Below are positions 7,941 through 64,000 of a DNA stretch of 64,000 bases, one piece after another. The DNA is taken from assembly GCA_016190755.1 (NCBI GenBank), contig JACPPY010000053.1:10531-74530 (forward strand). The letters run 5' to 3'. The stretch is from Chloroflexota bacterium (GTDB taxonomy: Bacteria > Chloroflexota > Dehalococcoidia > JACPPY01). A program made the translations under genes and the position numbers. How positions within the stretch are numbered: the first letter of the stretch is position 1; each line of letters starts with the position of its first letter. The notes under the pieces were generated by a model, which was not told the DNA's origin, did no database searches, and saw only the letters and a list, made by a program, of their open reading frames with translations.

Positions 7941-8166
7941 TCTGGGTACCCCTTTTTTCGCCTGACAGACCCCTGGGGTCGCAGGGGTCGTTTTCACCCC
8001 TTGTTGGCGTCTTGCTTTGATGTTAAAATGCGACCACTATGATACTACACTCCCGGCCAATACACAAACCTCACGAATTCACGACATACCTTTTAGACCT
8101 ATCATAATATTATAGTTGGGGGTCCCCTCGGTGAGGACCAAGCAGAAAACGGTAGAGTTGAAGGCC

Positions 8167-9798: not shown

Positions 9799-9805
9799 CC
9801 GACAC

Positions 9806-10645
9806 ATGGCGCTGAAGATCGTCACTGATAGCACAGCAGACCTACCGCGCGACCTTGCGCGGCAGTTAGACATCCGTGTGGTCCCTCTAACAGTCAGGTT
9901 TGGCACCGAAACATACCTGGATGGGGTACAGCTATCCGCCGACGAGTTCTTCCGCAAGCTAGTGCAAAGTCCGGTCCTGCCAACAACAGCGGCGCCGGGA
10001 CCTGGCGTATTCAGTGAGCTTTACAACTATTTGTTGGACCAGGGCCACGAAGTGCTATCCATGCATATCTCCAGCAAGCTCAGCGCAACCTTCGGTTCAG
10101 CGGTTGCCGGCAAGAACAATCTCTCCGCTGGCAGCAAGGTTGAAGTAGTGGATACGATGTCGGTGTCCATGGGCCTTGGGCTGCTGGCGCTTCAGGCGGC
10201 AAGGGTAGCGGTAGAGGGAGCCACACTGGCTGAAGCGGTGGAACTGGTGAAGCGCAAGATGCCTGCCGTCAAACTGTATGGCGCCTTCGATACCCTGGAG
10301 TACTTGTACAAAGGCGGGCGCATCGGCCGGGCGCAGGCCCTCCTGGGATCGATGTTGAACCTGAAGCCGATGATCGTCGTACGTGACGGCGAGGTGCACC
10401 CATTAGAGCGAGTGCGTACGAGAGCAAAGGCTGTGGCCAGGCTGCGTCAACTTGTGGAGAACAGCAAAGACCCCGAGGAATTGGCCGTAATACACGCGAC
10501 CACCCCCGACGACATGGAAGACCTGTCCAAGCAAGTGGAAAAGCTCGTCCCGGGCAAGAGGGTACACCGCACCCAGTTTGGCCCGGTGCTGGGAACGTAT
10601 ACCGGTCCCGGCATACTTGCGGTCGGCCTCCTGGAAAGGCTCTAG
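9806..10645 (+). CDS. DegV-family fatty-acid-binding protein (FakB-like)
   Basis: 279 aa. KIVTDSTADLP .. FDTLEYLYKGGRIGRAQALLGSMLNLKPM. Confidence 0.85.
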   Translation: MALKIVTDSTADLPRDLARQLDIRVVPLTVRFGTETYLDGVQLSADEFFRKLVQSPVLPTTAAPGPGVFSELYNYLLDQGHEVLSMHISSKLSATFGSAVAGKNNLSAGSKVEVVDTMSVSMGLGLLALQAARVAVEGATLAEAVELVKRKMPAVKLYGAFDTLEYLYKGGRIGRAQALLGSMLNLKPMIVVRDGEVHPLERVRTRAKAVARLRQLVENSKDPEELAVIHATTPDDMEDLSKQVEKLVPGKRVHRTQFGPVLGTYTGPGILAVGLLERL

Positions 10646-10790
10646 GTCTTTCGCTGGCCTTCTGAAGGCGCTATTGCAAGATGTTCGTCCATCTACGATA
10701 CTAAGCGCGTGCCTGTTTTCGGCCATCAGATGTGTAGCTCATCAAGACCTTTGCTGAGTCTCGGGCTGTGATTCATATGAGGGTTCTGCG

Positions 10791-13199
10791 TTGTCCAGCA
10801 TAGAGACGCTGCGCCGCATAATCGAACTCGAACGTACCAGGAACTATGATGACAAAGCTGTCATGGGCGGTCTCGGGTCGTTCTTGCGGCGTTGGACGGC
10901 GGAGCTTACTGTAGAAGACAAGGCAACGCTGTCCAGGTTCCAGCAGTTGGCCACTGAGGGGGCGGCATATTCGACCTGGCCCAAGACACGCCGGAAAGAT
11001 TGGTCGGGAGAGCTAGCAGCCTGCCTGGGTATGGCGTGGGCGACGCCCAAGGCACAGGCAGCAAGGCCGGCCAGACGCAATTCATCCACCGCACCTCCAC
11101 CCACACTAGACTCAGCTATATCCACGGTCAAAAGCCTTAATGCCTCGATGGCAGAGAAACTGGGGAAGCTGGGAGTGCAGACGATGCGCGACCTCCTGTA
11201 CCTGTTTCCACGCCGCCACATCGACTACAGCCAGCGCAAGCGTATCTCGGAGCTGGTTGAAGGCCAGGACCAGACCATCATCGCCAATGTGTGGCAGGCG
11301 GATGCCAGGCCTCTCGGCCGCATGCGTGGCACGGAGGCCGTGGTGGGTGACGAAACGGGCAACATCAGGGTCGTGTGGTTCAACCAACCGTACCTGGCCC
11401 AGAGGTTGACGGCGAACTCCAGGGTAGTTATCAGCGGCAAGGTTTCTGTGTTCCGTGGCGAGCGTCTGTTTGAGTCTCCCGAATGGGAAATACTGGAAGA
11501 AAAGGACCTGGTGCATACCGGGCGTCTGGTGCCGGTATACCCGTTGACACGAGGCCTGTACCCCCGGCAGATGCGGGGATTCATGAAGCGCATACTGGAT
11601 ACCTGGGCATGGCAGGCCGGCGAATTCTTACCCGGAGATACCAGGCAGCGATGTGGCCTGCTGCAACTGCCGGAGGCCCTGCATCAGGCCCACTTCCCTG
11701 ACTCCTCCGAACTGAAAGGTCGCGCCAGAGAGAGGCTGGCGTTCGATGAACTGCTATTGCTGCAGCTGGGCGTTCAGGGCAGACGGCGAGAGTGGCAGGA
11801 AGACCAGCAAGGACACCCGCTTGGCGCCGGTTCGGGCGCCCTGGACAGGTTCATGGGCCTGCTGCCGTTCATCTTGACCGCGGAGCAGAGAAAGGCACTG
11901 GAAGAAATACTGGCGGACATCGGCCAATCCAGGCCCATGTGCCGGCTTTTGCAGGGTGATGTGGGCAGCGGCAAGACAGTGGTGGCCACCTCCGCTCTCG
12001 TCGTAGCCGCGGACAACGGCTGCCAGGGGGCCTTAATGGCGCCCACACAGATACTGGCGGAGCAGCATTTCCGGACATTGGCCCGCCTTTTGCCGCCTGA
12101 GGACGGAGGCCCGGAAGACAGGATATTCCGCCATTCGGGGTTGATGTCGCGGCCTATAACCATTGCTCTGCTTACCGGAAATACACGCGAGAAGCAGAAA
12201 GACGAGCTATGCCAGCGAATAAGCGCCGGCAAGGTGGATGTAGTCATCGGCACACATGCCCTGATACAGGAAAGCGTCGAGTTCAACAGGCTGGCAATGG
12301 TCGTCGTAGATGAGCAGCACCGCTTCGGTGTTATGCAGCGGTCCGCATTGAGACAAAAGGGGTTCAACCCCCACATGCTGGTAATGACGGCCACCCCTAT
12401 ACCGCGTACCCTCGCGTTGACCCTTTACGGCGATCTGGATGTCTCGACCATCAACCAGCTACCACCTGGAAGGCAAAAGGTGAAGACCAAGTGGCTTGAC
12501 CCGGAAAAACGCTCCAGTGCCTATGAGTTCGTGCGCAAGCAGGTGCGTGAAGGCCACCAGGCATTCGTCGTCTGCCCGCTTATCGAGGAGTCTGAGGTCA
12601 TAGAAGCCAGGGCTGCGGTGACCGAACACGAGAGGTTATCGCGAGAGGTCTTCCCGGACCTCAAGCTGGATATGCTGCACGGGCGCATGAGCGGTGCTGA
12701 GAAGGAAGACATCATGCGCCGGTTCAAGGCACACGAGTTTGACATACTGGTATCAACGCCGGTCGTCGAGGTCGGCATAGACGTGCCCAACGCAACTGTG
12801 ATGCTTGTTGAGGGCGCCGACCGTTTTGGCCTCTCACAGCTACACCAGTTCCGCGGACGCGTCGGCAGAGGCGAGGCCCAGAGCTACTGCATGCTGCTAG
12901 CCGAAAAACCCTCGGATGAGGCCAGGGAACGCCTGGCGATCATCGAGTGGACATACGATGGTTTTGCACTGGCTGAGGAGGATATGAGATTGCGCGGGCC
13001 CGGCGAGTTCTTCGGCACGCGGCAAAGTGGACTGCCAGACCTGCGCATGGCCAGATTGACGGACATGGCCATACTCGAGAAAGCCCGCGAAGAGGCGTTA
13101 CGTATCTTCCAGAAAGACCCTGAATTACAGCGCCCGGAACATCAGGCGCTGTCCAAAGAAATGGCACGCATGTGGAAACACGAGGCTGAGCGGAGCTGA
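10791..13199 (+). CDS. recG: ATP-dependent DNA helicase RecG
   Basis: 802 aa. Wedge/OB region, helicase motif I GDVGSGKT, motif II VVDEQHRFG, motif VI QLHQFRGRVGRG, and a C-terminal TRG-like segment GPGEFFGTRQSG. Confidence 0.9.
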   Translation: MSSIETLRRIIELERTRNYDDKAVMGGLGSFLRRWTAELTVEDKATLSRFQQLATEGAAYSTWPKTRRKDWSGELAACLGMAWATPKAQAARPARRNSSTAPPPTLDSAISTVKSLNASMAEKLGKLGVQTMRDLLYLFPRRHIDYSQRKRISELVEGQDQTIIANVWQADARPLGRMRGTEAVVGDETGNIRVVWFNQPYLAQRLTANSRVVISGKVSVFRGERLFESPEWEILEEKDLVHTGRLVPVYPLTRGLYPRQMRGFMKRILDTWAWQAGEFLPGDTRQRCGLLQLPEALHQAHFPDSSELKGRARERLAFDELLLLQLGVQGRRREWQEDQQGHPLGAGSGALDRFMGLLPFILTAEQRKALEEILADIGQSRPMCRLLQGDVGSGKTVVATSALVVAADNGCQGALMAPTQILAEQHFRTLARLLPPEDGGPEDRIFRHSGLMSRPITIALLTGNTREKQKDELCQRISAGKVDVVIGTHALIQESVEFNRLAMVVVDEQHRFGVMQRSALRQKGFNPHMLVMTATPIPRTLALTLYGDLDVSTINQLPPGRQKVKTKWLDPEKRSSAYEFVRKQVREGHQAFVVCPLIEESEVIEARAAVTEHERLSREVFPDLKLDMLHGRMSGAEKEDIMRRFKAHEFDILVSTPVVEVGIDVPNATVMLVEGADRFGLSQLHQFRGRVGRGEAQSYCMLLAEKPSDEARERLAIIEWTYDGFALAEEDMRLRGPGEFFGTRQSGLPDLRMARLTDMAILEKAREEALRIFQKDPELQRPEHQALSKEMARMWKHEAERS

Positions 13200-48730: not shown

Positions 48731-50905
48731 TTAAGTCCCCTTGGTTCTGGCGCTGATACCCTTAGCCAACTCGGCAGACACTTCTCTATACCGTTCGAAC
48801 TCCATAGTATATGTTGCCCTGCCCTGGCTTAACGACCTGATGGTGGTGGCGTAGCCAAATGTCTCCGCCAGTGGTACTCGAGCGTGAACGACGGTAGACC
48901 CGCCACGCGTTTCGATACCCTCGATCTGCCCTCGTCGGGAGTTCAAGTCTCCGATGATGTCGCCGACCGACTCCTCCGGCGTGACAACCTCTATCGACAT
49001 TATGGGTTCGAGCAGGATAGGATTTGCTCTCTTCAATCCGTTCTTGACTCCAAGAGAGCCAGCCATTTTGAAGGCGATCTCAGAGGAGTCCACCTCATGA
49101 TAGCTGCCGTCATAGACCGTTACTTTTACGTCCACGACAGGGTAGCCGGCCACTGCTCCCGATTCCAGGGCTTCCCTGGCCCCGGCTTCGACAGCAGGTA
49201 TGTACTCCTTCGGGACCGCTCCTGCCTTGACTTTGTCTGCGAACTCGAAACCGCTTCCCGGCTCACCGGGCTCCAGCTCCAGCCAGACATGGCCGTACTG
49301 GCCCCGGCCGCCAAACTGCCGAATAAACCTGCCCTCAGACTTAACGGGCGCAGTTATCGTTTCCCTATAGGCCACCTGCGGCCTGCCGACTTTGGCACCA
49401 ACCTTGAATTCGCGCAGCATGCGCTCGATAAGCACATCCAGGTGCAATTCGCCCATGCCTGACACAAGTGTCTCGCCCGTTTCAGGGTCGAAGTGGACCT
49501 TAAATGTCGGGTCTTCATCGGCCAGCTTGGACAGTGCCTCGCCCAGCTTATCCTGGTCGACCTTGGTCTTGGGTTCGACTGCGACTGATATCACCGGCTC
49601 CGGGAAACGTATGGCTTCCAGAACTACCGGCGCAGATGCGTCGCACAGCGTATCTCCGGTGAAAGTATTCTTCAAGCCGACCGTAGCCGCTATGGCTCCG
49701 GTGTCGACTTCCGCTATCTCTTCACGCCGGTTGGCATGCATCAGGAACAGCCGCCCGATGCGCTCTTTTCTTTCCCTGGTGGTATTTAGCACCTGGTCTC
49801 CAACCTTCATCTTTCCCGAGTACACCCTGAAGTACACCAGGCGTCCCATGAATGGGTCGGAGACGACCTTGAACGCGAGTGCGCTGAACGGGGCGTCGTC
49901 CCTGGCCTCGCGCAGGACACGCTCTCCGGACTTAGGGTTTATGGCCGAAATCGGGAGCATATCCCCCGGCGAGGGTAGATAGTCCACCACGGCGTCCAAC
50001 AAGAGTTGTATACCCTTGTTCCTGAAAGCACTGCCGCACAGGACAGGCACAAGGTGCCGGGCCAGCGTAGCCCGGCGTATTGCCGCTCGGATATCAGAAA
50101 CCGAAAGCTCCTTGCCATCCAGGTACGCTTCCATCAGACGGTCGTCACCTTCTGCCAGGAGTTCGATCATGTTGTGCCGCGCCTCTGCTACTCTGGCCTT
50201 GTCCGACTCAGGCACGGGGCCGATGACAGGCGCATCCTCGGCGGAATCGGTGAACGTCCACACCTTTTCATCTATAAGGTCTATGACACCTCGGAAGTCG
50301 CTTTCGCTTCCCAAAGGCAGTTGTATCGCCAGCGGCTTTGCCTGCAGGCGCTCCTTGATAGTCGCGATAGAGTGCTCAAAATCAGCGCCCACGCGGTCCA
50401 TCTTATTTATGAAACAAATCCGTGGAACACTGTATTTATCGGCCTGTCGCCACACCGTTTCTGATTGTGCCTCAACTCCGGATACGCCGTCGAAAACGAC
50501 AACTCCTCCATCGAGCACTCTCAGGCTTCGCTCCACTTCGGCAGTGAAGTCCACGTGGCCGGGAGTATCGATAATATTGATACGGTGCCCGTTCCAGTAG
50601 CAGGTGGTGGCGGCCGCCGTAATGGTAATGCCGCGCTCACGTTCCTGGTCCATCCAGTCCATGACCGCGGTACCATCATGTACCTCGCCTATCTTGTAGG
50701 TGCGGCCGGTATAATACAGGATCCGCTCGGTGGTCGTCGTCTTGCCTGCATCGATATGGGCAATAATGCCAATGTTCCTGACCAACTCCAGCGGGAAAGC
50801 CCGCTCTGCGGCCTTATCGGTTTTAGCCCCGACCTGGGGATCACCCTGGTCAGGGTTGTGCGTTGTATCCACGTTAGTTCCGACTGTCAATGTATTCTTT
50901 ACCAT
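48731..50905 (-). CDS. fusA: elongation factor G
   Basis: 724 aa. [35 protein letters not shown]. The stop abuts the rpsJ start. Carries about 30 extra N-terminal residues if ATG 50905 is used. Confidence 0.95.
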
Positions 50906-52142: not shown

Positions 52143-54689
52143 TTACTTGGCCGTGGGGAGGGTGAACTTGAACGTGGAGCCTTTCCCCACCTCTGACTCA
52201 ACCCAGATGCGTCCTCCGTGTGCCTCTACCAGGCGGCGGCATACCACCAGTCCCAGCCCAACACCCTCTACCTTGGTCTGGCCGGGAGCTTCAAGCCGCT
52301 GGAAAGGCTCAAATAGCCGCTTCTTCCCTTCGGGAGATATGCCGGCACCCGAGTCCTTTACACTTACGACGAGCGAGTCCCGTTCTTGGGCGACCGATAT
52401 CCTGATGTAGCTGCCCTCCGGGGAATACTTGACGGCGTTGTTCATGAGGTTATGCAGTACAAGCTCAACCCTGAGGCGATCAGCTTTCACCTCGGGCAGG
52501 CCGTCGGGGATTGTGACGGTGATCCGGTGTGACCGGTGCAAGTCGTTGAACCTGTCTACCATGCCCCGCACGACGTCGTCCATCCTCAACGAGCTCCCGT
52601 CCAGCTTGATGCCGTGCGCCTGTATCCGCGACAGCTCCAACAAATTGTTCACTATGTCTGCCAGGGAATGCGCTTCCCAGAAAGCATCCTGCATGAGTTG
52701 CTCAGCGTCGCTTTCCGGTATTCGAGAGCTGTCGCTCAGCAGAGTATGCAGCGCCCCCAGCACCACTGTGAGAGGCGTCCGCAATTCGTGCGATACCATG
52801 CCAATGAAATCGTCCTTAAGTTTCTCAATAGTCTTGCGTTCCGTGATATCTTGCATGGCCTGCACCACGGCCACGACATCGCCCTGGGCATTCAGCACCG
52901 GGTCCAGATGGATCCGCAACCAGCGATTTCCTGATCGGGGTTCCTGCATCTCCACCTCGCGTGGCTCCTTGGTTTTCACGCAATCCGCAAACGGACAATT
53001 GGAAATAGGTGCTTTCAGACCGTGAACGACCTCACAGCACTTGCGTCCCACCATCTGTTCAGGAGTCGAATCAAACATCTCGGCCATGGCCCGGTTGGCC
53101 ATGCTTATATTATGTTCGACATCCACGATAGACAGCCCTTCGCTCATAGAGTCGAAGGTCTGTTTCCATTCTCTGCGCGCCCTATCTGCGATATCGAAGG
53201 TCGTGGCGTTGACTATGGCAACGCCGACCATGCTGGCCAGGCTATCCAATATCTCAAGGTCGGCCCGTGTCAGTTGTCCCTTGTGTTGGGAATAGAAGCT
53301 TATGACACCGACGATAGCCCCGCTGGCCCTGAGAGGACAGGCGATAGAGAAGCAACCACCGAGCTCCGCAATGAACGGGTGTACTGCCCTTATCGCCGGG
53401 TCAAATCCAGTCCTCGTCTTAACCAGCCCTTCCCGGGCTGCATCAGCTATTATTGTTTGGTCGCAACTCAGTCTGATATGGTTCATTGTGGCATCGGCCA
53501 ATTGCTCCAGCATATGGGAAGCGGTGAGCAGCTCCAGGTACTCCTTGCTGGCGTCCAGCCGCCATACAGACCCTCCTTCCATTCCCAGAACACCAAGGGC
53601 GCTGTCCAGCGCTGTAGAAGCCAATGATTTCACTTCCAGTGTTTTGGATAGCGCCTGACTCACACCATACAGGGCCTCCAACCTTGCTGCTCTATCTTTG
53701 GTCTCCTTTTCCATACGTTTGTGCTGCGTCAGGTCTACCACATAGCAAACAGCGGCGGGCCGGTCTCTGAACATCGTCGGTGCTCCGGTCATCTCCACGG
53801 CGACAGAGGAACCGTCCCTGTGCATAACGGTTATTTCCCTCAGAGAAGGTGTATGCTTCCCCTGCAACCAGAGCCGGACATCGGCAGAAACATCATTTCG
53901 GCAATCGGCGCCTATCAAATCAAGGAAGGATACTGATTGCAGTTCCTCCACGCTGCGGCCCGAAATCCGGGCCCACTCCCGGTTGGCAAATATGTGCACA
54001 GCCTCTCTCTCAGGCGTGTTCTGAAGCACAAAGACAGCCTCTCTGGCCCGACCGGCCGTTTGCACCAGGCTGTGGTAACGCTCTTCGGATTCGAGGTAGG
54101 CTTTCTCCAGTGCGGCCAGGGTCATTTTGCGGTCCGTAACATCGGTTATTGCCGAGCGTACACAGCCTTGGGCTTCTCTCCCAAGCTTGACATACACGCT
54201 CTCCATCAGCGCCTGGAACGGCCACCCATCATTCTTCATCAGCTTCAGTTCGCACTTCTGCCTTGATCCCGTTCTCGCGACAATAGCCAAATGGTCACGA
54301 AAGGCCCGCCGGTACTCACTGGCTATAAAGACCTTGAACCGGGACTGCAAAAGGTCCCGTTTTTCGGCCCCCAGAAGGGATGCTCCGGTGTGGTTGACGT
54401 CCACTATTGAACCCCTGCGGTCAAAGGTAAAGTATGCTACGGGAGAGAAGTCGTACAGGTCGATGTATTTCTTGCTTAGGGCTTCAGTCTCTTCCTTTGC
54501 CTGGCGTAGATCCCGGTTTTGCGCTTCCATCTCGGCTTGAGCTGTCTGGAGTTCTTGTATGCGTTTGTCCAGGTCTTGCGCCTGAGGAGGCCGAGTACTG
54601 TCTTGGGAAACAAGACGCTCTTCAGAGCAAGCTTTCAGGCGGCGACGTGATGCCGGTTTTGGCCTGTCCTTACCCATGTATTGGCTCAC
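52143..54689 (-). CDS. multi-PAS/GAF sensor histidine kinase (no adjacent response regulator)
   Basis: 848 aa. N-terminal coiled coil, several PAS-like modules, a GAF-like module, H-box [11 protein letters not shown]-box [13 protein letters not shown]-boxes DSGAGI and GVGLGL. Confidence 0.85.
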
Positions 54690-55026: not shown

Positions 55027-55878
55027 CTAGGAGTAAAAGGCAACAGACACAACCGGACCGGTATGCCCGGCCATCGTTGGCGTATACGGCGCCATATACA
55101 GCTCGGCACAATTATATTGCGCCTTGACCATGTCGCGCAGTTCTTCGCCATCTTCGATGCGGTCTGTGTAGTGCACCACCATATGCAGCGGCTTACTGGT
55201 ATCAGCATAGTCCTTTATCATATCCACTAGCCTGGCCATCGCCTTGCGTGTAGTGCGCACCCTGCCCAGATTCTCCACCACCCCCGTTCCGTTAACTATG
55301 CCGATTATCGGCTTCACCTGCACCAACTCTCCAACCCAGGCAGTCTTCGGAGCCCGCCCACTCTTCATGAGATACTTCAATGTCTACATGGCCACAAGCA
55401 GACTTGAGCGGCGCGCCACGTCTTCTGCTACAGTGACGACCTCCGCTAGGTCCTTCCCGGCGGCAGCCGCACGGGCAGCTTCCAACACAGCGAAGCCTTC
55501 GGCGCCGGCTGCTGTCTTGCTGTCTACAACGGTAATCTCCAGGCCGGGAAATTCGCTCTTGACCAAATCCTTCGCTTGTCCCGCGGCGGAGTAAACTCCG
55601 GTAAGGGCGGCGGATACGACGATGCAGGCGATGCTGTCCGTTTTCTTCGCGGCTTTTCGGAACAGGTCGGCCATATCTCCGGGGCTCACGGTGCTGGTCG
55701 TGAAATCCTTAATGCTGGGGAACATCTTCCAGAACTGTTCAGAGGTCATGTCTTCCTTGTCTCGGTACCCTTTCCCATTGATATTCAAGCTCAATGGCGA
55801 GACGAATATACCGTATTCTTTGTACAGGTTGTCGGGCAAACAACTCATAGTATCGGTTACGATCGTCACGTTAGACAT
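55027..55878 (-). pseudogene. DegV/FakB-family gene interrupted by a single in-frame TAG (55384-55386)
   Basis: ORFs 55384..55926 and 55027..55380 are in the same frame. Read through, they give ..SSLLVAM*TLKYLMKSGRAP.., 283 codons, which is normal DegV length. The stop sits where the intact paralog (9806..10645) has D in FDTLEYLYKGGRIG. ATG 55878 (MSNVTIVTDT) is the likely start. Confidence 0.7.
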
Positions 55879-55901
55879 TGTCCTGGTCCCCCTCGATCCT
55901 C

Positions 55902-56660
55902 CTACATTACGCCACCGTCGACGCATATTACCTGGGCCGTGATGTAGCTGGCGCGTTCGGTGGCCAGGAAGCCTGCAAGTTCTGCCACGTCCTGCGGTCT
56001 GCCAAAGCGCTTCAGTGGTATGCGGGCCAATATCTCGTCTTGCCTCTCTTTAGGCAACCTGGCAGTCATCTCCGTAGTGATGAACCCGGGTGCGATGACG
56101 TTGGCGGTGATATTCCTCGACCCCAATTCACGCGCCAGGCTCTTCGTGAAGGCGATGAGCCCCCCCTTTGCCGCCGAGTAGTTTGCCTGGCCAACATTGC
56201 CTACAAGCCCCCCCACCGATGATATGTTCACCACACGTCCCCAGAACTGGGCCATCATAGAGCGCATCGCAAACTTGGTGCAGAGGTAAGCGCCACGCAG
56301 GTTCGTGTTCAGGACGTCATCCCAGGCCTCATCGGACATGCGCATCAGGAGAGCGTCCCTTGTTATGCCTGCGTTGTTTACCAGTATATCTATTCTGCCC
56401 CACCTGTCGATGACGCTCTGCGTCATCGCCTTTACAGCGCCAGCATCGGCCACGTTGGCTTTGGCCAGCATAGCCTGACCGCCGGCAGCTTCTATCTCGC
56501 CCACGGCTTTGGCCGCCTCAGCATCATTGGATACGTAGTTTACGGCCACCTTTGATCCCATGGCAGCAAGTCTCAGCGCTATGGCCCGTCCCAACCCTCT
56601 CGAGGCCCCGGTCACCAGGGATACTTTCCCTTGCAGTTCCTTTTCTGTATGTTCGTTCAT
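55902..56660 (-). CDS. fabG: 3-oxoacyl-[ACP] reductase FabG
   Basis: KVSLVTGASRGLGRAIA .. NNAGI .. S..YSAAK. ATG 56660 overlaps the fabF stop (ATGA); the ORF opens at 56774. Confidence 0.85.
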   Translation of the reverse strand: MNEHTEKELQGKVSLVTGASRGLGRAIALRLAAMGSKVAVNYVSNDAEAAKAVGEIEAAGGQAMLAKANVADAGAVKAMTQSVIDRWGRIDILVNNAGITRDALLMRMSDEAWDDVLNTNLRGAYLCTKFAMRSMMAQFWGRVVNISSVGGLVGNVGQANYSAAKGGLIAFTKSLARELGSRNITANVIAPGFITTEMTARLPKERQDEILARIPLKRFGRPQDVAELAGFLATERASYITAQVICVDGGVM

Positions 56661-57913
56661 TCGTACCGCCTCAGGACTATGCAACAGTTCTGGCCGCCCA
56701 TGCCGAAGGAGTTGGACATGCATACGCTGACCGGTTTCCGCCGGGCTACATTCGGGACATAGTCCAGATCGCATTCCGGATCAGGGGTCTCATACGCGAT
56801 CGTCGGTGGTAGTATGCCTGTATTGATGGTCATAACGGCAGCTACCGCCTCTACTGCCCCCGCGGCACAGGCCAGGTGGCCTATCATCGACTTGTTGGAA
56901 CTCATCGGTATGCTGTATGCGCGGCTGCCGAACACCTTCTTGGTGGCAGCGGTCTCTGCGGAATCGTTGAGCTTCGTGGCGGTGCCATGTGCGTTTATGT
57001 AATCCACCTCATCAGGTGAGATCAACGCGTCCCGTAGTGCACTCTTCATCGCCACAGCCTGTGTTTCGGCGCTGGGAGCAGTCTCATTAAAGGCGTCGAA
57101 GGACCAACCGGCCCCGGCTAGCTCAGCCAGTATGTGAGCGCCCCGGCTGGCGGCATGCTCGCATGTCTCCAATATGAGTATACCCGCTCCTTCGCCGAAT
57201 ATCATACCGGTACGGTTGAGGTCGAAGGGACGGCACGCCTTTCTCGGGTCGGTCTCCTTCGGCAGCGCGCCAACCTTGCTCAAGCTGGCTATGGATACCT
57301 GGCTTATGCTGGACTCCGCACCTCCGGCGATAATCACATCCGCGTGTCCCAGGCGCATCAGGTTCAATGCCGCACCCAGTGCATCGCTGCCACTGGCGCA
57401 GGCGCTGTTGATGCTGGTGTTGGGACCTTTGGCCCCAACCTCCAGACCTACCTGCGAGGGGACCATGCTCGCGGCTATCTTATTAATGAATAGAGGGTCT
57501 ATCCTCATCGGCCCTTTGGCTTTCATGATGTCCCACTGTTGGCAGATGAGCGATATCATGCCAGAGGTCGCGATAACCACGCCCACCCTCTCGGCGTTTT
57601 CCTTGGACATATCTATTCCGGCTGATGTCAGGGCCATCCTGGCGGCAGCTATGCCAAATTGGCTGGCCAGGGATGTGCGGTCTGCGCGCTTGATATGCAT
57701 GTAGTTTGTCGGCTCGAAACCCTTGACCTCGGCCGCGAGCTTGGTGGGATAGGCTGTGGTGTCGAAGTGCGTAATGGGCCCGATGCCGCATTTGCCATTG
57801 ACTAGCCCATCCCAGTACTCACTTACAGAGAGGCCAATGGGCGTTATCGCCCCCAGCCCCGTGATAACTATTCTTTTACTTTGCACTCGCGTTCCCCCAT
57901 TGTTAAGCGCCAC
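56657..57913 (-). CDS. fabF: beta-ketoacyl-[ACP] synthase II FabF
   Basis: 418 aa. RIVITGLGAITPIG, active-site Cys in INSACASGS, HGTATKLND, GHLACAAG. GTG 57886 is an alternative start. Confidence 0.9.
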   Translation of the reverse strand: MALNNGGTRVQSKRIVITGLGAITPIGLSVSEYWDGLVNGKCGIGPITHFDTTAYPTKLAAEVKGFEPTNYMHIKRADRTSLASQFGIAAARMALTSAGIDMSKENAERVGVVIATSGMISLICQQWDIMKAKGPMRIDPLFINKIAASMVPSQVGLEVGAKGPNTSINSACASGSDALGAALNLMRLGHADVIIAGGAESSISQVSIASLSKVGALPKETDPRKACRPFDLNRTGMIFGEGAGILILETCEHAASRGAHILAELAGAGWSFDAFNETAPSAETQAVAMKSALRDALISPDEVDYINAHGTATKLNDSAETAATKKVFGSRAYSIPMSSNKSMIGHLACAAGAVEAVAAVMTINTGILPPTIAYETPDPECDLDYVPNVARRKPVSVCMSNSFGMGGQNCCIVLRRYE

Positions 57914-58667
57914 CGGGCATGACCTGCGTCAGAGACATACCACCATCTATAACGATTACCTGCCCTCGTATCATGTTGGACTCATCGTTGCACAGAAAGG
58001 CGACCAGATTCGCGATATCCTCACCACGCACCATTCTGCCCGCCGGAGTGCTAACGTTCCAATTTCGCGCCGGCATGTCCTTGGTATACATGCGCAAGGC
58101 ATCGCTCTCCACAGCCCCTCCTGACACACCATTCACGCAGATGCCTTTTGGAGCAAGCTCTACAGCAAGATAACGAGTGAGGGCCTCCAGGGCTGCCTTA
58201 GAGACGCCAACAGACGTATATACCGGCAGCACCATTCTGGAGCCCAGGCTGGATATAGTCACCATTTTCCCGCCGTTTTTCATCAGCGGCGCTGCACGTT
58301 GGGCACACATCAGGAACGCCTTAGCGTTTATGTCCATGGTCCAGTCCCAGCCCTTAACATCCAGTTCCATGGCAGAGCGGGCGACACCGGAGGCGGCATT
58401 ATTGATAAAAATATCCAACCGCCCGAACTTCTCCTCCACCTCCTTGAACATCGCCCCCACCTTCTCCGGGTCTCCGACGTTGGCCTTGATAGTGTGAGCA
58501 GTTACGCCAAGTGCAGCGGCTTCTTTTGCCGTGGCTTCGGCCGTTTCCCTTTTCCGGAAGTAGTTGATGATTACATCGGCCCCGTCACGGGCAAGCCTGA
58601 GCGTGATAGCTCGCCCGATCCCGCGCGAGCCGCCGGTGACGAGCGCGACTTTGCCCTTCAGCGACAT
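57903..58667 (-). CDS. fabL: enoyl-[ACP] reductase, FabL-like SDR
   Basis: 254 aa. Similar along its length to B. subtilis FabL as I recall it: ALVTGGSRGIGRA, FGRLDIFINNAASGV, WDWTMDINAKA, VGVSKAALEALTRYLAVELAPKGI, TPAGRMV, MIRGQVIVIDGG. Confidence 0.7.
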   Translation of the reverse strand: MSLKGKVALVTGGSRGIGRAITLRLARDGADVIINYFRKRETAEATAKEAAALGVTAHTIKANVGDPEKVGAMFKEVEEKFGRLDIFINNAASGVARSAMELDVKGWDWTMDINAKAFLMCAQRAAPLMKNGGKMVTISSLGSRMVLPVYTSVGVSKAALEALTRYLAVELAPKGICVNGVSGGAVESDALRMYTKDMPARNWNVSTPAGRMVRGEDIANLVAFLCNDESNMIRGQVIVIDGGMSLTQVMPGGA

Positions 58668-58696: not shown

Positions 58697-58948
58697 TTAG
58701 CCTACTTTGCTGCCTTTTTCGGCCACCTTGCGGTCGATATATGCGACGAAGGCACCCATGGTCTTTATCTCCTGAAGGTCTTCGTCCTTTATCTCGATGT
58801 CGAAGGCTTCTTCAACACCAACCAGTATTTGAACTATATCCAGTGAATCAGCGGCAAAGTCTTTGAAAGTGGCTCCATCGCTGAAATCCACTTCCTTGCG
58901 CAGCACCTTGTTGACTATGCCCTTTAAGGTCTCCTCAGTAGTTGCCAT
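58697..58948 (-). CDS. acpP: acyl carrier protein
   Basis: 83 aa. FAADSLDIVQILVGVEEAFDIEI (DSL phosphopantetheine site). Confidence 0.9.
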   Translation of the reverse strand: MATTEETLKGIVNKVLRKEVDFSDGATFKDFAADSLDIVQILVGVEEAFDIEIKDEDLQEIKTMGAFVAYIDRKVAEKGSKVG

Positions 58949-59010: not shown

Positions 59011-60018
59011 TCAAGCGGCAGACGAGGCCAGTTTTGCCCGGACCGCCGCGAACTCTGCCTTCATCGCGCCTACCAGATCGCGCTCGTATGCAGTCTTTGC
59101 CTGCTCGATAGTATGTGCGACATCCTGCCACATGCTGCGCCCGTGGCCCACACAGGATATCCCGTTGACAGCCAGGAGAGGCCCCCCACCACGGACGTCG
59201 GAGATGTTGGTGGCCACAAGCAGGTCGTTCACCATCTTCTTGAGCTCGGTGTCTGAGATCTTGTTCTTAAGCCGTTCCTCCAGCCACTTGCACAGGACCT
59301 TGCCGAGGTTTTCGGTGTACTTGACTACTATGTTGCCAACGAAGCCGTCGCAGACGATGATGTTCGCCTTGCCCAAAGGCAGGTCATATCCCTCGACATT
59401 GCCGATGAAGTTCAACCCGCTCTTCTTGAGCAGAGCATGGGCGCTGTTTACTGCCTCGTTCCCTTTGCCTTCCTCCGCACCTATGCTCAACAGAGCTACA
59501 GTCGGATTGGGTATGTTCATCATTTTCCTGGCGAACACTGTGCCGACCACGGCGAAGTCCAGCAGCATCTCCGGCTTGCAGTCAACATTCCCCCCGAGGT
59601 CCATGACCATGGTGTTGGGCGCAAACCCCAGGAACGGCCCGCCGACGACCGGACGGGACACGCCTTCGATCGTCCCGAGCACCTGTAGTGCGGATGCCAC
59701 TACCCCTCCAGTAGGCCCTACACCTATTACGGCGTCCGCCTTGCCTTCCTTGACCAGCTTGGTGGCTACCAGTATCGAAGCATTTCTCTTCTTGCGCAAC
59801 GTGTACGCAGGATGCTCACCCTCAAGAAGATATTCATCAGTATGGACAATGCTTATCCTGTCCCCAGCGCCGCCGTTCTTGGATAGCTCCTTCTTGATCA
59901 GGTCCTGCGGCCCGACCAGTATTATGTCCACGCCATAGTCTCGTGCGCCAGCGACCGACCCTTTTACAATTTCCGCCGGGGCGAAGTCACCGCCCATTGC
60001 ATCAATAGCTATTCGCAT
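59011..60018 (-). CDS. plsX: phosphate acyltransferase PlsX
   Basis: 335 aa. MRIAIDAMGGDFAP .. GFVGNI. Confidence 0.9.
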   Translation of the reverse strand: MRIAIDAMGGDFAPAEIVKGSVAGARDYGVDIILVGPQDLIKKELSKNGGAGDRISIVHTDEYLLEGEHPAYTLRKKRNASILVATKLVKEGKADAVIGVGPTGGVVASALQVLGTIEGVSRPVVGGPFLGFAPNTMVMDLGGNVDCKPEMLLDFAVVGTVFARKMMNIPNPTVALLSIGAEEGKGNEAVNSAHALLKKSGLNFIGNVEGYDLPLGKANIIVCDGFVGNIVVKYTENLGKVLCKWLEERLKNKISDTELKKMVNDLLVATNISDVRGGGPLLAVNGISCVGHGRSMWQDVAHTIEQAKTAYERDLVGAMKAEFAAVRAKLASSAA

Positions 60019-60143: not shown

Positions 60144-61211
60144 CTACCAGGAATGGCTCAATGCGCCCTTGCCGCACACGCTATGGCAATTGCTTGCGTG
60201 ACTGTGGCTGCACGATGTGAAACCCGGGCACACCAGCGCCAGCTTCTTGCGACAGGAGTCCTTTACTGCCGCTTTCGACTCGCTGGACCCATTTCCGACC
60301 AACTCGAACACATGCGCCGGGCATGATATGACACATTTCCCGCAGCCATCGCATGCGCCGTTGTCCACGGTAATGAAATAATCGCCTGTGCCATCACTGT
60401 AACCGTACTGCGCCCTGGACATCTCGCTGGATTTCTCTCCCAGGCATCTGTCCCTGGCGAACAACGCTGCGCCTATCGCTCCGGCGAGCTGCGGGTCCTC
60501 ACACAACAGCGGTTTCAGCCCTACCTTCCCTGTTATCTTCGCCACCATGCCCCTGTTCTTGGCGATTCCTCCGCTTATGCTGAAATCAGCCTCTATCTTG
60601 ACCCGTTTGAGCAGGTTGAAGCAGCGTGTGGATATGGCATCATTTAGTCCGGCGAGTATGTCCTTCTTGGCTACTCCTTTCCTGAGATACGCGATGGCCT
60701 CGGACTTGGCAAATACCGCACAAATGGTATTGAACGGGATAGCGCCGTTGGACTGCAATGCCAGATCGCCTATTCCCGTCAGCGGCACATTAAGCACCTC
60801 GGCGATCATCTCCAAGAACCTACCGGTGCCACCGGCGCACTTGTCGTTCATTACGAAGTTCGTTACGCGTCCCCGGTCATCCACCTTGATGGCTTTGCAG
60901 TCTTGCCCTCCCATATCGAGGATGGTCCTGACCGAAGGGAAATACCAGTTTATACCACGAGCATGGCAGCTTATCTCGGACACGTTCTCACGGGCAAATG
61001 GGACCAGCACCCGGCCGTATCCCGTGGCCACAGTGTAATCAACGTCTTTTAAGGTCAAGCCAGTGCCCCTCAAAGTCGCATCCATGGTTGCAAAAGAGGT
61101 CTTAACGCTTTCAGGGCCGGTATCGCCAATATGAGTCGAGAGCAGAGCGCCGTCTTTGATGACCACTGCCTTGGACGCCCGAGACCCTATATCTATGCCA
61201 GCGACTATCAT
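60144..61211 (-). CDS. BcrAD/BadFG/HgdC-type activator ATPase fused to a C-terminal ferredoxin-like Cys/His-rich domain
   Basis: 355 aa. ASKHA-fold ATPase (VAGIDIGSRASK, DMGGQDCK). The two cluster-bridging Cys are at C125 (NDKCAGGTG) and C164 (NTICAVFAKSE). The tail has CDGCGKCVISCP (CxxCxxCxxxCP) plus CRKKLALVCPGFTSCSHSHASNCHSVCGKG. Confidence 0.8.
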   Translation of the reverse strand: MIVAGIDIGSRASKAVVIKDGALLSTHIGDTGPESVKTSFATMDATLRGTGLTLKDVDYTVATGYGRVLVPFARENVSEISCHARGINWYFPSVRTILDMGGQDCKAIKVDDRGRVTNFVMNDKCAGGTGRFLEMIAEVLNVPLTGIGDLALQSNGAIPFNTICAVFAKSEAIAYLRKGVAKKDILAGLNDAISTRCFNLLKRVKIEADFSISGGIAKNRGMVAKITGKVGLKPLLCEDPQLAGAIGAALFARDRCLGEKSSEMSRAQYGYSDGTGDYFITVDNGACDGCGKCVISCPAHVFELVGNGSSESKAAVKDSCRKKLALVCPGFTSCSHSHASNCHSVCGKGALSHSW

Positions 61212-63293
61212 CTAATCGCTCCCTGTGCCTTCACTGGCTGCGAGGGCTGCACCCAACGCCGCTACAGTCTGCGGCGACTCAGGCACCAATACCTTGATGC
61301 TCAGCTCTTCCTCCAGTATCGCCACAAGCCCGGCGTTCAGTGCCACACCACCAACGACGAGAACATCTTTTTCTATGCCGACCCTTTTGCACAACGAAGC
61401 CAACCTGCCAGCCACAGCATAGTGTATCCCGGCTGCTATGTCGGCCTTGGGGGTTGGCGGATCACGATGCACATGTGATATGACCTCGGACTCCGCGAAT
61501 ACGGCACACGTGCCGCTGATATCCGCCCGTCCTTGCGCCTGCAACGACAGGCTGGACACCTCGGGCAAAGTCATAGCCATGAGCCTGGCCATCTGCTGCA
61601 AGAACAGGCCTGTCCCTGCGGCGCATTTATCATGGTTGATGGAATCCGTCAGGTGGCCGCCTTCATCCACCTTGACCACGGTGCAGCTCTCACCACCGAT
61701 GTCTATCACCGTTCGCACGGAATGGTACAGATAATGTGCTCCCATGGCCAGACATGTGGCGGCAGTTTTGTGCCCCTTGCTAAACGACAGCCCTTTGCCA
61801 CCAACGCCGGTCGAGACCACGCACAGGTCCGGGTTGGACCTTATTCCAGCCCGCTCCAGCGCTTCCTTTATTGCGGCTTTCGCGCCAGCCTCAGCATCAT
61901 CAGCAGAAGCTATGATGGATGTCCCAAGGACACGATCGCCGTTGATGATAACGGCCTTCGTCGTCACGCTCCCGATATCCACACCAGCGACTAAAACATG
62001 CGTGCCGGCGGTCGCCTTTACGTGCGGCTTGCTCAATTGCTCGAAGAAGCGCTCCAGCGCCTCTCTAATCTCTTCTTCGCTGTTTATCGTAGGGTCGACG
62101 AGGTCACAGTCTATCGTGACCATAGGCACATTTATCTCAGCCAGAGTATCCTTGAAAAGCTTTATCGTGGCGCACGTGTGACGGCACCCCATGAAAGCCC
62201 AGTACACCGCGCCATCCACCTTGTACTGTTTGGCATGATCAGCCGTCTCCTTAAGCACCTTGTCCGTCAGCGGGCCGTACATTGTCCGTCTTTCAGGTAT
62301 CAGGTCCGCCTTCCTGGCCACGCTCTCCAGCGGTCGAGATGGGTCCAGCCTATCGTTGTTCCAGTAAGTGAACAACGGCTCAACAGTGCTGACTGCGCCG
62401 TGCTCCTGGTATAGGCGTTCCAAGAACCCGATCATGTGCATGGGCGGTACGAAGAGCGTCATGAGCCGGTGCTTCTCCTCCTTGACCGCACCCTTGCCCT
62501 GTTTCACCATATCGCTCAGTTCCTTGTGTACTGCCTCCAGGTATTCAACAGCCTCCGGCTGTCCCGGGAAAAGGTAGTCAACGGACAGCAGCTCCAGAAA
62601 ACCAAGAGCATGGAACGGTGAAGGTATTGCCTTGCGAAGCTCGCATATTTCATGCAGGAGCTCTATTTCCCTGTTGGTCCGCACTATGGACTCGGAGAGC
62701 TTGTCCCAGTTCATCTTGTGCCCGGACCTCTCCTCCAGGAAGCGCACCAGCTCTTGCAGCTCGGAGACGAAATACTTTATCTCCAGCTTACTGTCCTGGA
62801 ACGGGTGGTCGAGGAAGAACCCCGGGCGACGGTTTATTTCGGCGATCAACTCGCCGCTCTTGGCCGTATTGTCGCAGATGAGATTCGACCAGAGCACTAC
62901 ATCGGGTCTGGGTAAGGCGTTGATCTTGAACGCGCCCGCCAAGCCCCTGTGCGGCGAACATATCTCCGGGGCCAGGCCCAACTCCGCACCCGCCGCCAGC
63001 ACCTCTGATTGGGCCCCCAGGAATTCCGCCGCGAGCCATGTGGTCAGCTCAGTGTGCATCGGGATTATGTCCATCGCGTAAAGGACTTCGGTCGGGAAGA
63101 ACACCGTATGCGAAGCGAGGAAGCCGCCTTCCTCGCGGGCTCGAAGCACCCTGCTGTAATACTTCTCCAGCAGTTGGTAATACTTTATGTCGCTCTGGCG
63201 CGCCAGCGGATTAAGCCGGCTCATCCTGCCTATAAGCCGGCATGCTTTGACCAGAGATTCCACCCGGCTGCCCTGTCGTTCTGTGCTGATCAC
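61212..63293 (-). CDS. fusion of a 2-hydroxyacyl-CoA dehydratase/BcrB-BcrC-family subunit (N-terminal ~430 aa) with a BcrAD/HgdC-type ATPase (C-terminal ~260 aa)
   Basis: 693 aa with a GTG start. The N-terminal part has HGD-D-like features (FFPTEVLYAMDIIP, ICSPHRG, LICDN, FMGCRHTC, TIDCDLVD). The C-terminal part has VAGVDIGSVTTK, DIGGESC, HDKCAAGTG, GTCAVFAESE. Confidence 0.75.
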   Translation of the reverse strand: MISTERQGSRVESLVKACRLIGRMSRLNPLARQSDIKYYQLLEKYYSRVLRAREEGGFLASHTVFFPTEVLYAMDIIPMHTELTTWLAAEFLGAQSEVLAAGAELGLAPEICSPHRGLAGAFKINALPRPDVVLWSNLICDNTAKSGELIAEINRRPGFFLDHPFQDSKLEIKYFVSELQELVRFLEERSGHKMNWDKLSESIVRTNREIELLHEICELRKAIPSPFHALGFLELLSVDYLFPGQPEAVEYLEAVHKELSDMVKQGKGAVKEEKHRLMTLFVPPMHMIGFLERLYQEHGAVSTVEPLFTYWNNDRLDPSRPLESVARKADLIPERRTMYGPLTDKVLKETADHAKQYKVDGAVYWAFMGCRHTCATIKLFKDTLAEINVPMVTIDCDLVDPTINSEEEIREALERFFEQLSKPHVKATAGTHVLVAGVDIGSVTTKAVIINGDRVLGTSIIASADDAEAGAKAAIKEALERAGIRSNPDLCVVSTGVGGKGLSFSKGHKTAATCLAMGAHYLYHSVRTVIDIGGESCTVVKVDEGGHLTDSINHDKCAAGTGLFLQQMARLMAMTLPEVSSLSLQAQGRADISGTCAVFAESEVISHVHRDPPTPKADIAAGIHYAVAGRLASLCKRVGIEKDVLVVGGVALNAGLVAILEEELSIKVLVPESPQTVAALGAALAASEGTGSD

Positions 63294-64000
63294 GACTTCT
63301 TCGCCTCTATCATTTCCAAAAATGCCTGGACCCTGGTACGGATCTGTCCCGAGCCTGAGGTCGCATACTCGACGTCCAGCGAAAGCAGCGGTATATCGCG
63401 AGCTTTCAGCCGTTCGGACAGTAAAGGCAGATCATGGGCGTACGGCACACAATACCGTATTATCTGGCTGATAACACCATCCACCCGGAAATCGCGGGCA
63501 AGCCCAAGTATACGGTTAAACCGTTCTTCCGAGGGGAACATGCGGGCACAGGGGAAGTTGCTGAGATAGCGCCTGGAGATGGCCTCCAACGGCGTCCTGC
63601 TGCCATCCAGGACCACCGGGTCAGACCAGTACCTCGTGCTCGTACACAGCTCGTCGGTCACAACCAATGCGCCGAGCTCTTCAATGGACTTAATGAACTC
63701 GGGGTTGTTCATAACGCTGCCGGCAACCATGAGCCTCCATTTGCCCTTCAACTTCCGGCCGGAGGCATCAAGTTCATCCAGTAGCCGCCGAAGTTCTTCG
63801 TTGAACCGTTCCTTTGACATGCGGAAGCTGCTGTCAAGGATCTCCAGGGTCTCTGCTCCACTCACAGGAGGGTTGTCCAGTTTCCGCATCTCATATAAAC
63901 GGGCGAGCAACCGGCGGGACTCGTTGAATACCTCGATGGAATGCAGCAACTGCTCGTCACTTATTCTTACCCCGAGGTGTTGCTCCAGGTGCTGTTTGAA
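63290..64000 (-). CDS. 2-hydroxyacyl-CoA dehydratase/BcrB-BcrC-family subunit (N-terminus beyond window edge)
   Basis: The frame is open from 64000 down to the stop at 63290; the ORF track lists only the part from an internal TTG at 63949. ELCTSTRY, FPCARMF, IIRYCVPYAHD, LSLDVEY are typical of the C-terminal half of HGD-D family subunits. The stop overlaps the next gene's GTG (GTGA). Confidence 0.7.
   Translation of the reverse strand, partial: FKQHLEQHLGVRISDEQLLHSIEVFNESRRLLARLYEMRKLDNPPVSGAETLEILDSSFRMSKERFNEELRRLLDELDASGRKLKGKWRLMVAGSVMNNPEFIKSIEELGALVVTDELCTSTRYWSDPVVLDGSRTPLEAISRRYLSNFPCARMFPSEERFNRILGLARDFRVDGVISQIIRYCVPYAHDLPLLSERLKARDIPLLSLDVEYATSGSGQIRTRVQAFLEMIEAKKS

Follow-up and report, generated by a model that had tools for sequence, protein, structure and literature searches.

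The window analyzed here is a stretch of 64,000 nucleotides from contig JACPPY010000053.1 of a Chloroflexota bacterium of the class Dehalococcoidia (GenBank assembly GCA_016190755.1), and our subject is three adjacent minus-strand genes at its right end, which we call A, B, and C. We give about an even chance to the view that they encode an ATP-driven, low-potential iron-sulfur enzyme that has the module plan of the Bzd-type benzoyl-CoA reductase (BCR), belongs to a separate Dehalococcoidia clade, and sits in a neighborhood of fatty-acid and phospholipid genes. Because the only steady neighbors of these genes are genes of membrane-lipid synthesis, a lipid precursor is the probable substrate. 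That is, the enzyme probably acts on an acyl thioester bound to acyl carrier protein (ACP), or on a lipid precursor, and not on aromatic compounds.

A preliminary description of this DNA had proposed three tightly coupled genes, and both the open reading frames (ORFs) and a direct reading of the junctions bear this out. The stop of A overlaps the start of B in a GTGA at 63290-63293 (...AAG TCG TGA / GTG ATC AGC), and the start of C directly abuts the stop of B (...GAT TAG ATG ATA). The ORF of B extends over 61212-63293 (minus strand, 693 amino acids, GTG start) and that of C over 60144-61211 (minus strand, 355 amino acids). The full-length A of the source genome (P0270, 391 amino acids) was recovered from a protein database; it is encoded on the same 79.8-kb contig as NCBI P0001, the database copy of B. 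Searches with Pfam profiles agree with the domains that had been assigned by eye: A matches HGD-D (E = 2.7e-68); B matches HGD-D at residues 64-420 (1.3e-57) and BcrAD_BadFG at residues 437-686 (5.4e-44); and C matches BcrAD_BadFG at residues 5-252 (3.6e-55) and Fer4/Fer4_6 at residues 279-302. So HGD-D is supported in both A and B, B is a fusion of an HGD-D domain to an ATPase, and C is an ATPase with a ferredoxin-like tail. In an AlphaFold2 model of B (mean pLDDT 81.5), disorder between the domains is limited to residues 423-432.

We collected relatives of these genes from GTDB species representatives and metagenomes, which gave 105 loci, or 85 non-redundant loci at 97% identity of B. All 20 of the loci from GTDB representatives are in metagenome-assembled genomes (MAGs), so the family is without a cultured model, which is probably why it is uncharacterized. 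The usual state in the family is four genes: A, B, ATPase 1, and ATPase 2 with a ferredoxin tail. A adjoins B in every locus in which the upstream flank is present. Of 64 loci, 61 carry ATPase 1 and 55 carry ATPase 2, which comes with the C-type ferredoxin tail in 55 of 55; a minority of loci have just one ATPase (L031) or none nearby (L101). These results support the idea of four modules plus an electron-entry domain. They also support the suggested likeness to class I BCRs rather than to 2-hydroxyacyl-CoA dehydratases (HADs) with a detached homodimeric activator, since most loci have two distinct ATPase genes. The module plan of the preliminary description therefore stands, while its views on the role of the fusion, the lipid operon, the double-cubane branch, and the placement in a class need correction (see below).

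The ligands of the metal clusters are conserved. In the solved structure of BzdNO (PMC11971306), BzdN holds an [8Fe-9S] double-cubane cluster with Cys36, 73, 100, 263, 293, and 327. BzdO binds a [4Fe-4S] cluster by Cys95, 128, and 380; its Glu65 and His131 lie at the water on the iron, and its Trp46 lies where the ring binds (PMC11971306). The double-cubane cluster protein (DCCP) has a seven-cysteine motif, CX19CX18-19CX29CX166-170CX32-34CX32C (PMC7317905). In a HMMER alignment to BzdN (8s02_B), Cys47, 86, 113, 274, 306, and 339 of A fall on all six ligands; every one of 17 family sequences has all six, as does P0270, and the part of A within the window contains the three C-terminal ones (in DELC, NFPC, and RYC). 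In an alignment to 6eno_A, these cysteines occupy the six ligand positions of the DCCP motif as well, and the non-ligand Cys94 is absent from A. Some of the six are missing in HadC and MbdN (two in HadC). From these alignments, A is predicted to carry an [8Fe-9S] double-cubane cluster. Double-cubane proteins had been set apart as a third branch in the preliminary description, but A itself has the six double-cubane ligand cysteines, as BzdN does.

In B, Cys112, Cys140, Cys370, and Glu82 are invariant and are the counterparts of Cys95, Cys128, Cys380, and Glu65 of BzdO (at the second ligand, Cys128, the alignment is shifted by one residue, at Cys129). The N-terminal domain of B is predicted to bind a [4Fe-4S] cluster through three cysteines. 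Invariant Val64 and Thr143 take the places of Trp46 and His131 of BzdO; given the offset at Cys128/129, the position of the histidine is somewhat uncertain. The cysteines that bridge the cluster between the ATPase modules, already noted in the window, are invariant in the family (Cys557 and Cys596 in module 1, which is part of B, and Cys125 and Cys164 in module 2, which is part of C). The tail of C has eight invariant cysteines, in a canonical C287xxC290xxC293xxxC297P followed by an atypical C328P-x5-C334-x7-C342-x3-C346, and would bind two [4Fe-4S] clusters.

There are also invariant cysteines beyond the known ligands: Cys374 (CRHTC374) and Cys396 (DC396D) in B, Cys92 in A (P0270), and two in each ATPase module at equivalent positions (105 and 197 of C, 514 and 635 of B), one after GGQD/GGES and the other in the helix that precedes the last strand. 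Several of these are missing from the solved relatives that were aligned.

Scores against curated profiles set the family apart from the known enzymes. A scores 183 bits against the BzdN equivalog (cut-off 453.8), B scores 73 against BzdO (448.6), and C scores 231 against BzdQ (380); the BCR cut-offs applied were those of TIGR03190, TIGR03191, TIGR03192, and TIGR02260-63. Against the HAD equivalogs, A scores 177-192 for HadC (cut-off 700) and B scores 81 for HadB (750). The best NCBIfam match of A is double_cubane (NF040772), with 258.7 bits for P0270 and 264.4 bits for the copy in locus L028 (cut-off 350), followed by BzdN and HadC. Because the scores are under every curated BCR, HAD, and DCCP threshold, the cluster is not a compact version of any of these classes; on our best reading, the family forms a clade of its own within the BCR/HAD/DCCP superfamily, and this clade has many members among uncultured Dehalococcoidia.

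The best sequence matches in PDB are BzdN for A (about 33% identity) and BzdO for B (about 23% identity), from the Bzd-type BCR of Aromatoleum/Azoarcus (BzdNOPQ with the ferredoxin BzdM; 8S02, 8S1T, and 8S2R). That enzyme likewise combines a pair of HGD-D subunits with two different ASKHA ATPase modules, and its six [8Fe-9S] cysteines (in BzdN) and its three cysteines plus glutamate (in BzdO) are matched in A and B. Its electron donor is a dedicated 2[4Fe-4S] ferredoxin, whereas in this family the ferredoxin is fused to an ATPase. The identical four-module plan, the shared ligands, and the PDB matches might mean that the cluster is a genuine class I (Bzd-type) reductase of benzoyl-CoA or another aromatic acyl-CoA, used in aromatic degradation, and that the lipid genes are chance neighbors. 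The public annotation points the same way: JGI names members of the family "bzd-type benzoyl-CoA reductase N subunit" or "bcr-type subunit C," and papers on subsurface Dehalococcoidia take bzd-like genes as evidence for aromatic degradation. We nevertheless consider an aromatic reductase improbable. The scores are far under the equivalog cut-offs, and His131 and Trp46 of BzdO, which contact the iron-bound water and the ring, are not kept in B, where invariant Thr and Val replace them. No homolog of benzoate-CoA ligase, dienoyl-CoA hydratase, Had, or Oah recurs in the 85 loci, and lipid genes are nearby in 34 of 37 loci. Instead of ring-pathway and CoA-ligase genes, the neighbors are those for PlsX, ACP, DegV, and fatty acid synthesis (FAS). 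The name "benzoyl-CoA reductase subunit" is probably wrong for this family, and where calls of aromatic degradation rest on it, the neighborhood and the active-site data make the inference unsafe.

HADs (HadBC/HadI and HgdAB/HgdC; 3O3M, 4EHT, and 1HUX) resemble the family in other ways. The modeled N-terminal domain of B superposes best on HadB (TM score 0.86), then on BzdO (0.80) and MbdO (0.78), and its C-terminal domain superposes on HadI, MbdQ, and HgdC. The ATPase modules are 37-38% identical to HadI and HgdC in structural alignments. A ketyl-radical mechanism at a three-cysteine [4Fe-4S] cluster is plausible in B too, and HAD pathways have a nearby oxidoreductase and an enoyl reductase, for which the family has a short-chain dehydrogenase/reductase (SDR) and FabL. 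In contrast, both HGD-D subunits of a HAD carry a three-cysteine [4Fe-4S] cluster, whereas A has six ligand cysteines; a HAD has one free homodimeric activator, whereas the family mostly has two ATPase genes, tethered and with a ferredoxin domain; and of the pathway partners of HADs, a CoA transferase and an (R)-2-hydroxyacid dehydrogenase, no CoA transferase recurs near the family, though an SDR gene is upstream in 25 of 43 loci. DCCP with its reductase DCCP-R (Carboxydothermus hydrogenoformans, 6ENO and 7YYL; YjiM/YjiL in E. coli) shares the six ligand cysteines of A and, as in the family, works with an ATP-dependent reductase. Unlike A, which is always paired with a BzdO/HadB-type B, DCCP is a homodimer and is itself catalytic.

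The lipid-synthesis genes do lie 125 nt downstream of C, as the preliminary description reported, but it took them for merely the next operon and they are the one conserved genomic partner of the family. PlsX is encoded directly downstream in 29 of the 45 family loci with enough flank, and it exceeds the equivalog cut-off in the three loci tested. An SDR gene is upstream in 25 of 43 loci and a DegV gene in 16 of 43. Within 9 kb, 34 of the 37 loci that have both flanks show one or more lipid markers. An unbiased clustering of the neighboring ORFs in the 85 non-redundant loci gave as recurrent families the ATPases, SDRs, PlsX, DegV, a HadAB-like hot-dog pair, and FabF; every other family was seen in six loci or fewer. 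No CoA ligase, CoA transferase, crotonase-type, or ring-pathway gene recurs in this clustering. The preliminary description had left the substrate unassigned and had noted the lack of a CoA ligase or transferase, and the wider set of loci supports this.

The arrangement of these neighbors varies. In a relative with 58% identity (L028), the genes for an SDR, A, B, C, a HadA/HadB-like hot-dog pair, PlsX, ACP, FabL, FabF, and FabG follow each other with minimal spacing. The FAS operon is downstream in the window, divergent upstream in L055 and L099, and directly after B, with no ATPase genes, in L101. Another locus (L031:8829-16485) has a minimal set of A, B, one 272-amino-acid ATPase that lacks the ferredoxin tail, PlsX (370 amino acids), ACP, and two MMPL-family transporter genes. 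The closest 50%-cluster relatives, P0121 and P0122, sit on short contigs and add nothing to this picture. In the window, the 125 nt that separate C from plsX contain neither a terminator-like nor a promoter-like site. A search of the literature for a link of the family to plsX, ACP, or Dehalococcoidia lipids found nothing relevant.

The substrate might instead be something other than a lipid, either a small molecule (as for DCCP) or a CoA ester of amino-acid fermentation (as for HadBC), if the adjacency to plsX and acpP reflects co-regulation or an inherited gene order. The best profile for A is double_cubane (259-264 bits), the best structural match of the N-terminal domain of B is HadB, some loci have no PlsX, and a distant fused homolog (P0132) sits in a non-lipid context. 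We judge this to be unlikely. DCCP is a homodimer without a three-cysteine partner, whereas A is always paired with B; neither a CoA transferase nor a D-2-hydroxyacid dehydrogenase recurs; and the three different arrangements of lipid genes argue against passive synteny.

Homology suggests the following path for electrons. The ferredoxin-like domain of C, with its two predicted [4Fe-4S] clusters, would take up electrons and pass them to the [4Fe-4S] cluster that bridges the ATPase modules (the C-terminal part of B and the N-terminal part of C). ATP hydrolysis would drive an electron onto the [8Fe-9S] cluster of A and from there it would reach the three-cysteine [4Fe-4S] cluster of the N-terminal domain of B, whose free iron would bind the carbonyl of the substrate, with Glu82 as the acid/base. 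The genomic context suggests that the substrate may be an acyl thioester on ACP rather than on CoA and that DegV/FakA, PlsX, and ACP may fill the role of a CoA ligase or transferase by supplying this thioester. For example, 2-hydroxy- or otherwise functionalized acyl-ACPs, loaded via DegV/FakA and PlsX, might be converted to normal FAS intermediates. As to the reaction, a stoichiometric two-electron reduction like that of BCR has a slight edge over a dehydration but falls well short of an even chance; in its favor are the ferredoxin domain built into C, the double-cubane cluster, the pair of ATPases from two genes, and the repeated fusion. A HAD-like ketyl-radical dehydration of a 2-hydroxyacyl-ACP to an enoyl-ACP is only a little less probable, and the frequent SDR partner and FabL would then give the preceding and following steps. 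Some other chemistry takes up the remaining probability. A biotin-independent route from a lactyl- or acryloyl-thioester to a malonyl-thioester was considered, and we found no evidence that bears on it. Replacement of a core FAS step (the dehydratase or the enoyl reductase) is unlikely, as the operon of the relatives has both the HadAB-like hot-dog pair and FabL.

Several points weigh against a role in lipid metabolism and against the cofactor assignments. The evidence for function is homology and gene neighborhood throughout, and for double-cubane binding by A it is aligned cysteines only. No residue-level evidence tells ACP-bound from CoA-bound substrates. Roughly one-third of the loci with enough downstream flank have no PlsX there, and lipid markers are missing from 3 of the 37 loci that have both flanks. 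Conserved adjacency is not proof in any case: rpmF also adjoins plsX in many bacteria. Finally, the normal FAS cycle runs without any low-potential step, and the relatives already carry genes for the ketosynthase, ketoreductase, dehydratase, and enoyl reductase, so an added reaction lacks an obvious slot.

More speculatively, and with less confidence than the overall assignment, this may be the first ACP-dependent member of the BCR/HAD/DCCP superfamily: a double-cubane, ATP-driven radical enzyme with which Dehalococcoidia would carry out an as yet unrecognized step, independent of oxygen, in making membrane lipids or salvaging fatty acids. In that case, the genes widely reported as "benzoyl-CoA reductase" from subsurface Dehalococcoidia do not indicate aromatic degradation. 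The double-cubane [8Fe-9S] cluster would also gain a physiological context outside aromatic degradation (to our knowledge, BzdN and DCCP are so far the only proteins known to carry it, and no natural substrate is known for DCCP). It would be a second, independent lineage of ATP-driven iron-sulfur enzymes that act on lipids, after PlsA/GeR, and might bring to light novel anaerobic lipid chemistry in a bacterial class that ranks among the most abundant of the subsurface.

PlsA/PlsR and GeR are the known lipid-acting relatives; they have two PF01869 domains followed by PF09989 (DUF2229), with or without PF06050. They share with the family the four-module logic (two activating ATPases and two reduction or dehydration modules), and the fusion of the modules varies between lineages, as it does here; their substrate is a membrane lipid. 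The difference is that they contain PF09989, whereas the family proteins have only PF06050. Our cluster could be a functional analog in which HGD-D replaces DUF2229 and whose product is a vinyl- or alkyl-ether lipid, formed by reduction of either an acyl phosphate or a glycerolipid at an oxygen ester. Precedent is on the side of this idea, as PlsA/PlsR and GeR show that four-module enzymes of the BCR/HAD type act on membrane lipids, and so is the link to plsX, whose product makes acyl phosphate. In L031, the MMPL lipid transporters come after the cluster, and in L017 two A-B-SDR sets without their own ATPases adjoin a GeR-type gene. We still think it quite improbable. A BLASTP comparison of A and of the N-terminal domain of B to the DUF2229/reductase part of the GeR-type protein in L017 (L017:3750-7865) gave no similarity (E of at least 0.09); only the ATPase modules of that protein match those of the family, at about 28% identity. 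There was no Pfam match to PF09989 in A, B, or C. Also, the closest characterized relatives with a known substrate all bind thioesters. A split ortholog of PlsAR/GeR was rejected, since A and B are unlike the DUF2229 region.

In the L017 locus (L017:3750-17889, Dehalococcoidales), the GeR/PlsAR-type gene (1372 amino acids, two BcrAD domains and DUF2229) is followed by the two tandem A-B-SDR sets, which have no ATPase genes of their own, and then by genes for ACP and FabG. The ATPase modules of the GeR-type protein might serve these sets.

The fusion in B had been presented as a defining trait of the system, but it is a minority state: a continuous B-ATPase ORF is found in only 6 of 76 non-redundant loci, and most relatives have four genes. 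In the unfused relatives, B ends in ...FFELLEDR and a stop, and ATPase 1 starts with MKALGIDIGS 3-40 nt later, often in frame. The fused forms fall at three to four or more separate places in a neighbor-joining tree of the N-terminal domain, which is distance-based and without support values. The B fusion arose repeatedly, at least three to four times, by loss of the stop codon after ...FFELLEDR; a single origin is rejected by that tree (again, distance-based and without support values). Recurrent fusion by stop loss argues for a permanent place of ATPase 1 beside the C-terminus of B. An assembly artifact is ruled out by the 6 of 76 loci and because the fused 693-amino-acid protein is 100% identical to NCBI P0001 (from a Chloroflexi (Dehalococcoidia) MAG) and about 16 further clusters from independent assemblies share the fused architecture. 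Beyond the family, a search of a library of 1.84 billion representatives found colinear HGD-D-to-ATPase proteins of 650-720 amino acids in distant lineages, at 27-33% identity, P0132 among them. The reverse order, ATPase to HGD-D, occurs in loci of Lachnospiraceae and Rhodobacter. The loci L024:3642-7839 (Lachnospiraceae) and L025:6292-10564 (Rhodobacter viridis) encode an ATPase, an ATPase-HGD-D fusion (674-679 amino acids), and an HGD-D protein, and in L024 an NMT1/THI5-like binding protein comes next.

Table 1. The A-B-C cluster and the lipid genes downstream of it, with positions in the window.
Feature	Position	Strand	Remarks
Gene A, 3' part (236 of 391 codons + stop)	63290..64000	-	ORF; open at window end; HGD-D, BzdN/DCCP type
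Gene B, residues 1-422	62028..63293	-	HGD-D domain, catalytic (BzdO/HadB) type
Gene B linker, residues 423-432 (about 10 residues)	61998..62027	-	pLDDT <50; junction compared with L001-L015
Gene B, residues 433-693 + stop	61212..61997	-	ATPase module 1, BcrAD/HgdC ASKHA type
Gene C, residues 1-256	60444..61211	-	ATPase module 2; closest solved relatives MbdQ, HadI
Gene C, residues 257-355 + stop	60144..60443	-	Ferredoxin-like tail, eight cysteines
plsX (phosphate acyltransferase)	59011..60018	-	125 nt downstream of C; TIGR00182 264 bits, cut-off 243
Acyl carrier protein, DSLD motif	58697..58948	-	
fabL-type enoyl-ACP reductase	57903..58667	-	NF005975 351.6 bits, cut-off 328
fabF, beta-ketoacyl-ACP synthase II	56657..57913	-	
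fabG, 3-oxoacyl-ACP reductase	55902..56654	-	TIGR01830 324.6 bits, cut-off 297.75
DegV/FakB-family fatty-acid-binding protein gene	55027..55926	-	In-frame TAG 55384-55386

Some details of the lipid operon (Table 1) are worth noting. fabL and fabF overlap by 11 nt (57903-57913). The mechanical ORF of fabG (290 amino acids, from 56774) overlaps fabF by 118 nt, and the profile match begins near residue 41; the true start is probably near 56654. The DegV gene at the end of the operon is interrupted by its single in-frame TAG (...LLVAM*TLKYLMKSG...), and both halves match the DegV profile. The gene may be a pseudogene, or the TAG may come from a sequencing error or be a recoded stop. Elsewhere in the window (8116-13199, plus strand), genes for FakA (560 amino acids), an intact DegV/FakB (279 amino acids), and RecG lie in a row. 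With FakA and an intact DegV/FakB, the source genome is equipped to convert free fatty acids to acyl phosphate, and PlsX can then load this onto ACP. After the lipid operon come genes for an 848-amino-acid PAS/GAF sensor histidine kinase (52143-54689, minus strand) and for EF-G (48731-50905, minus strand), and those for SecY and RpoA are further along, at about 33.7-39.5 kb.

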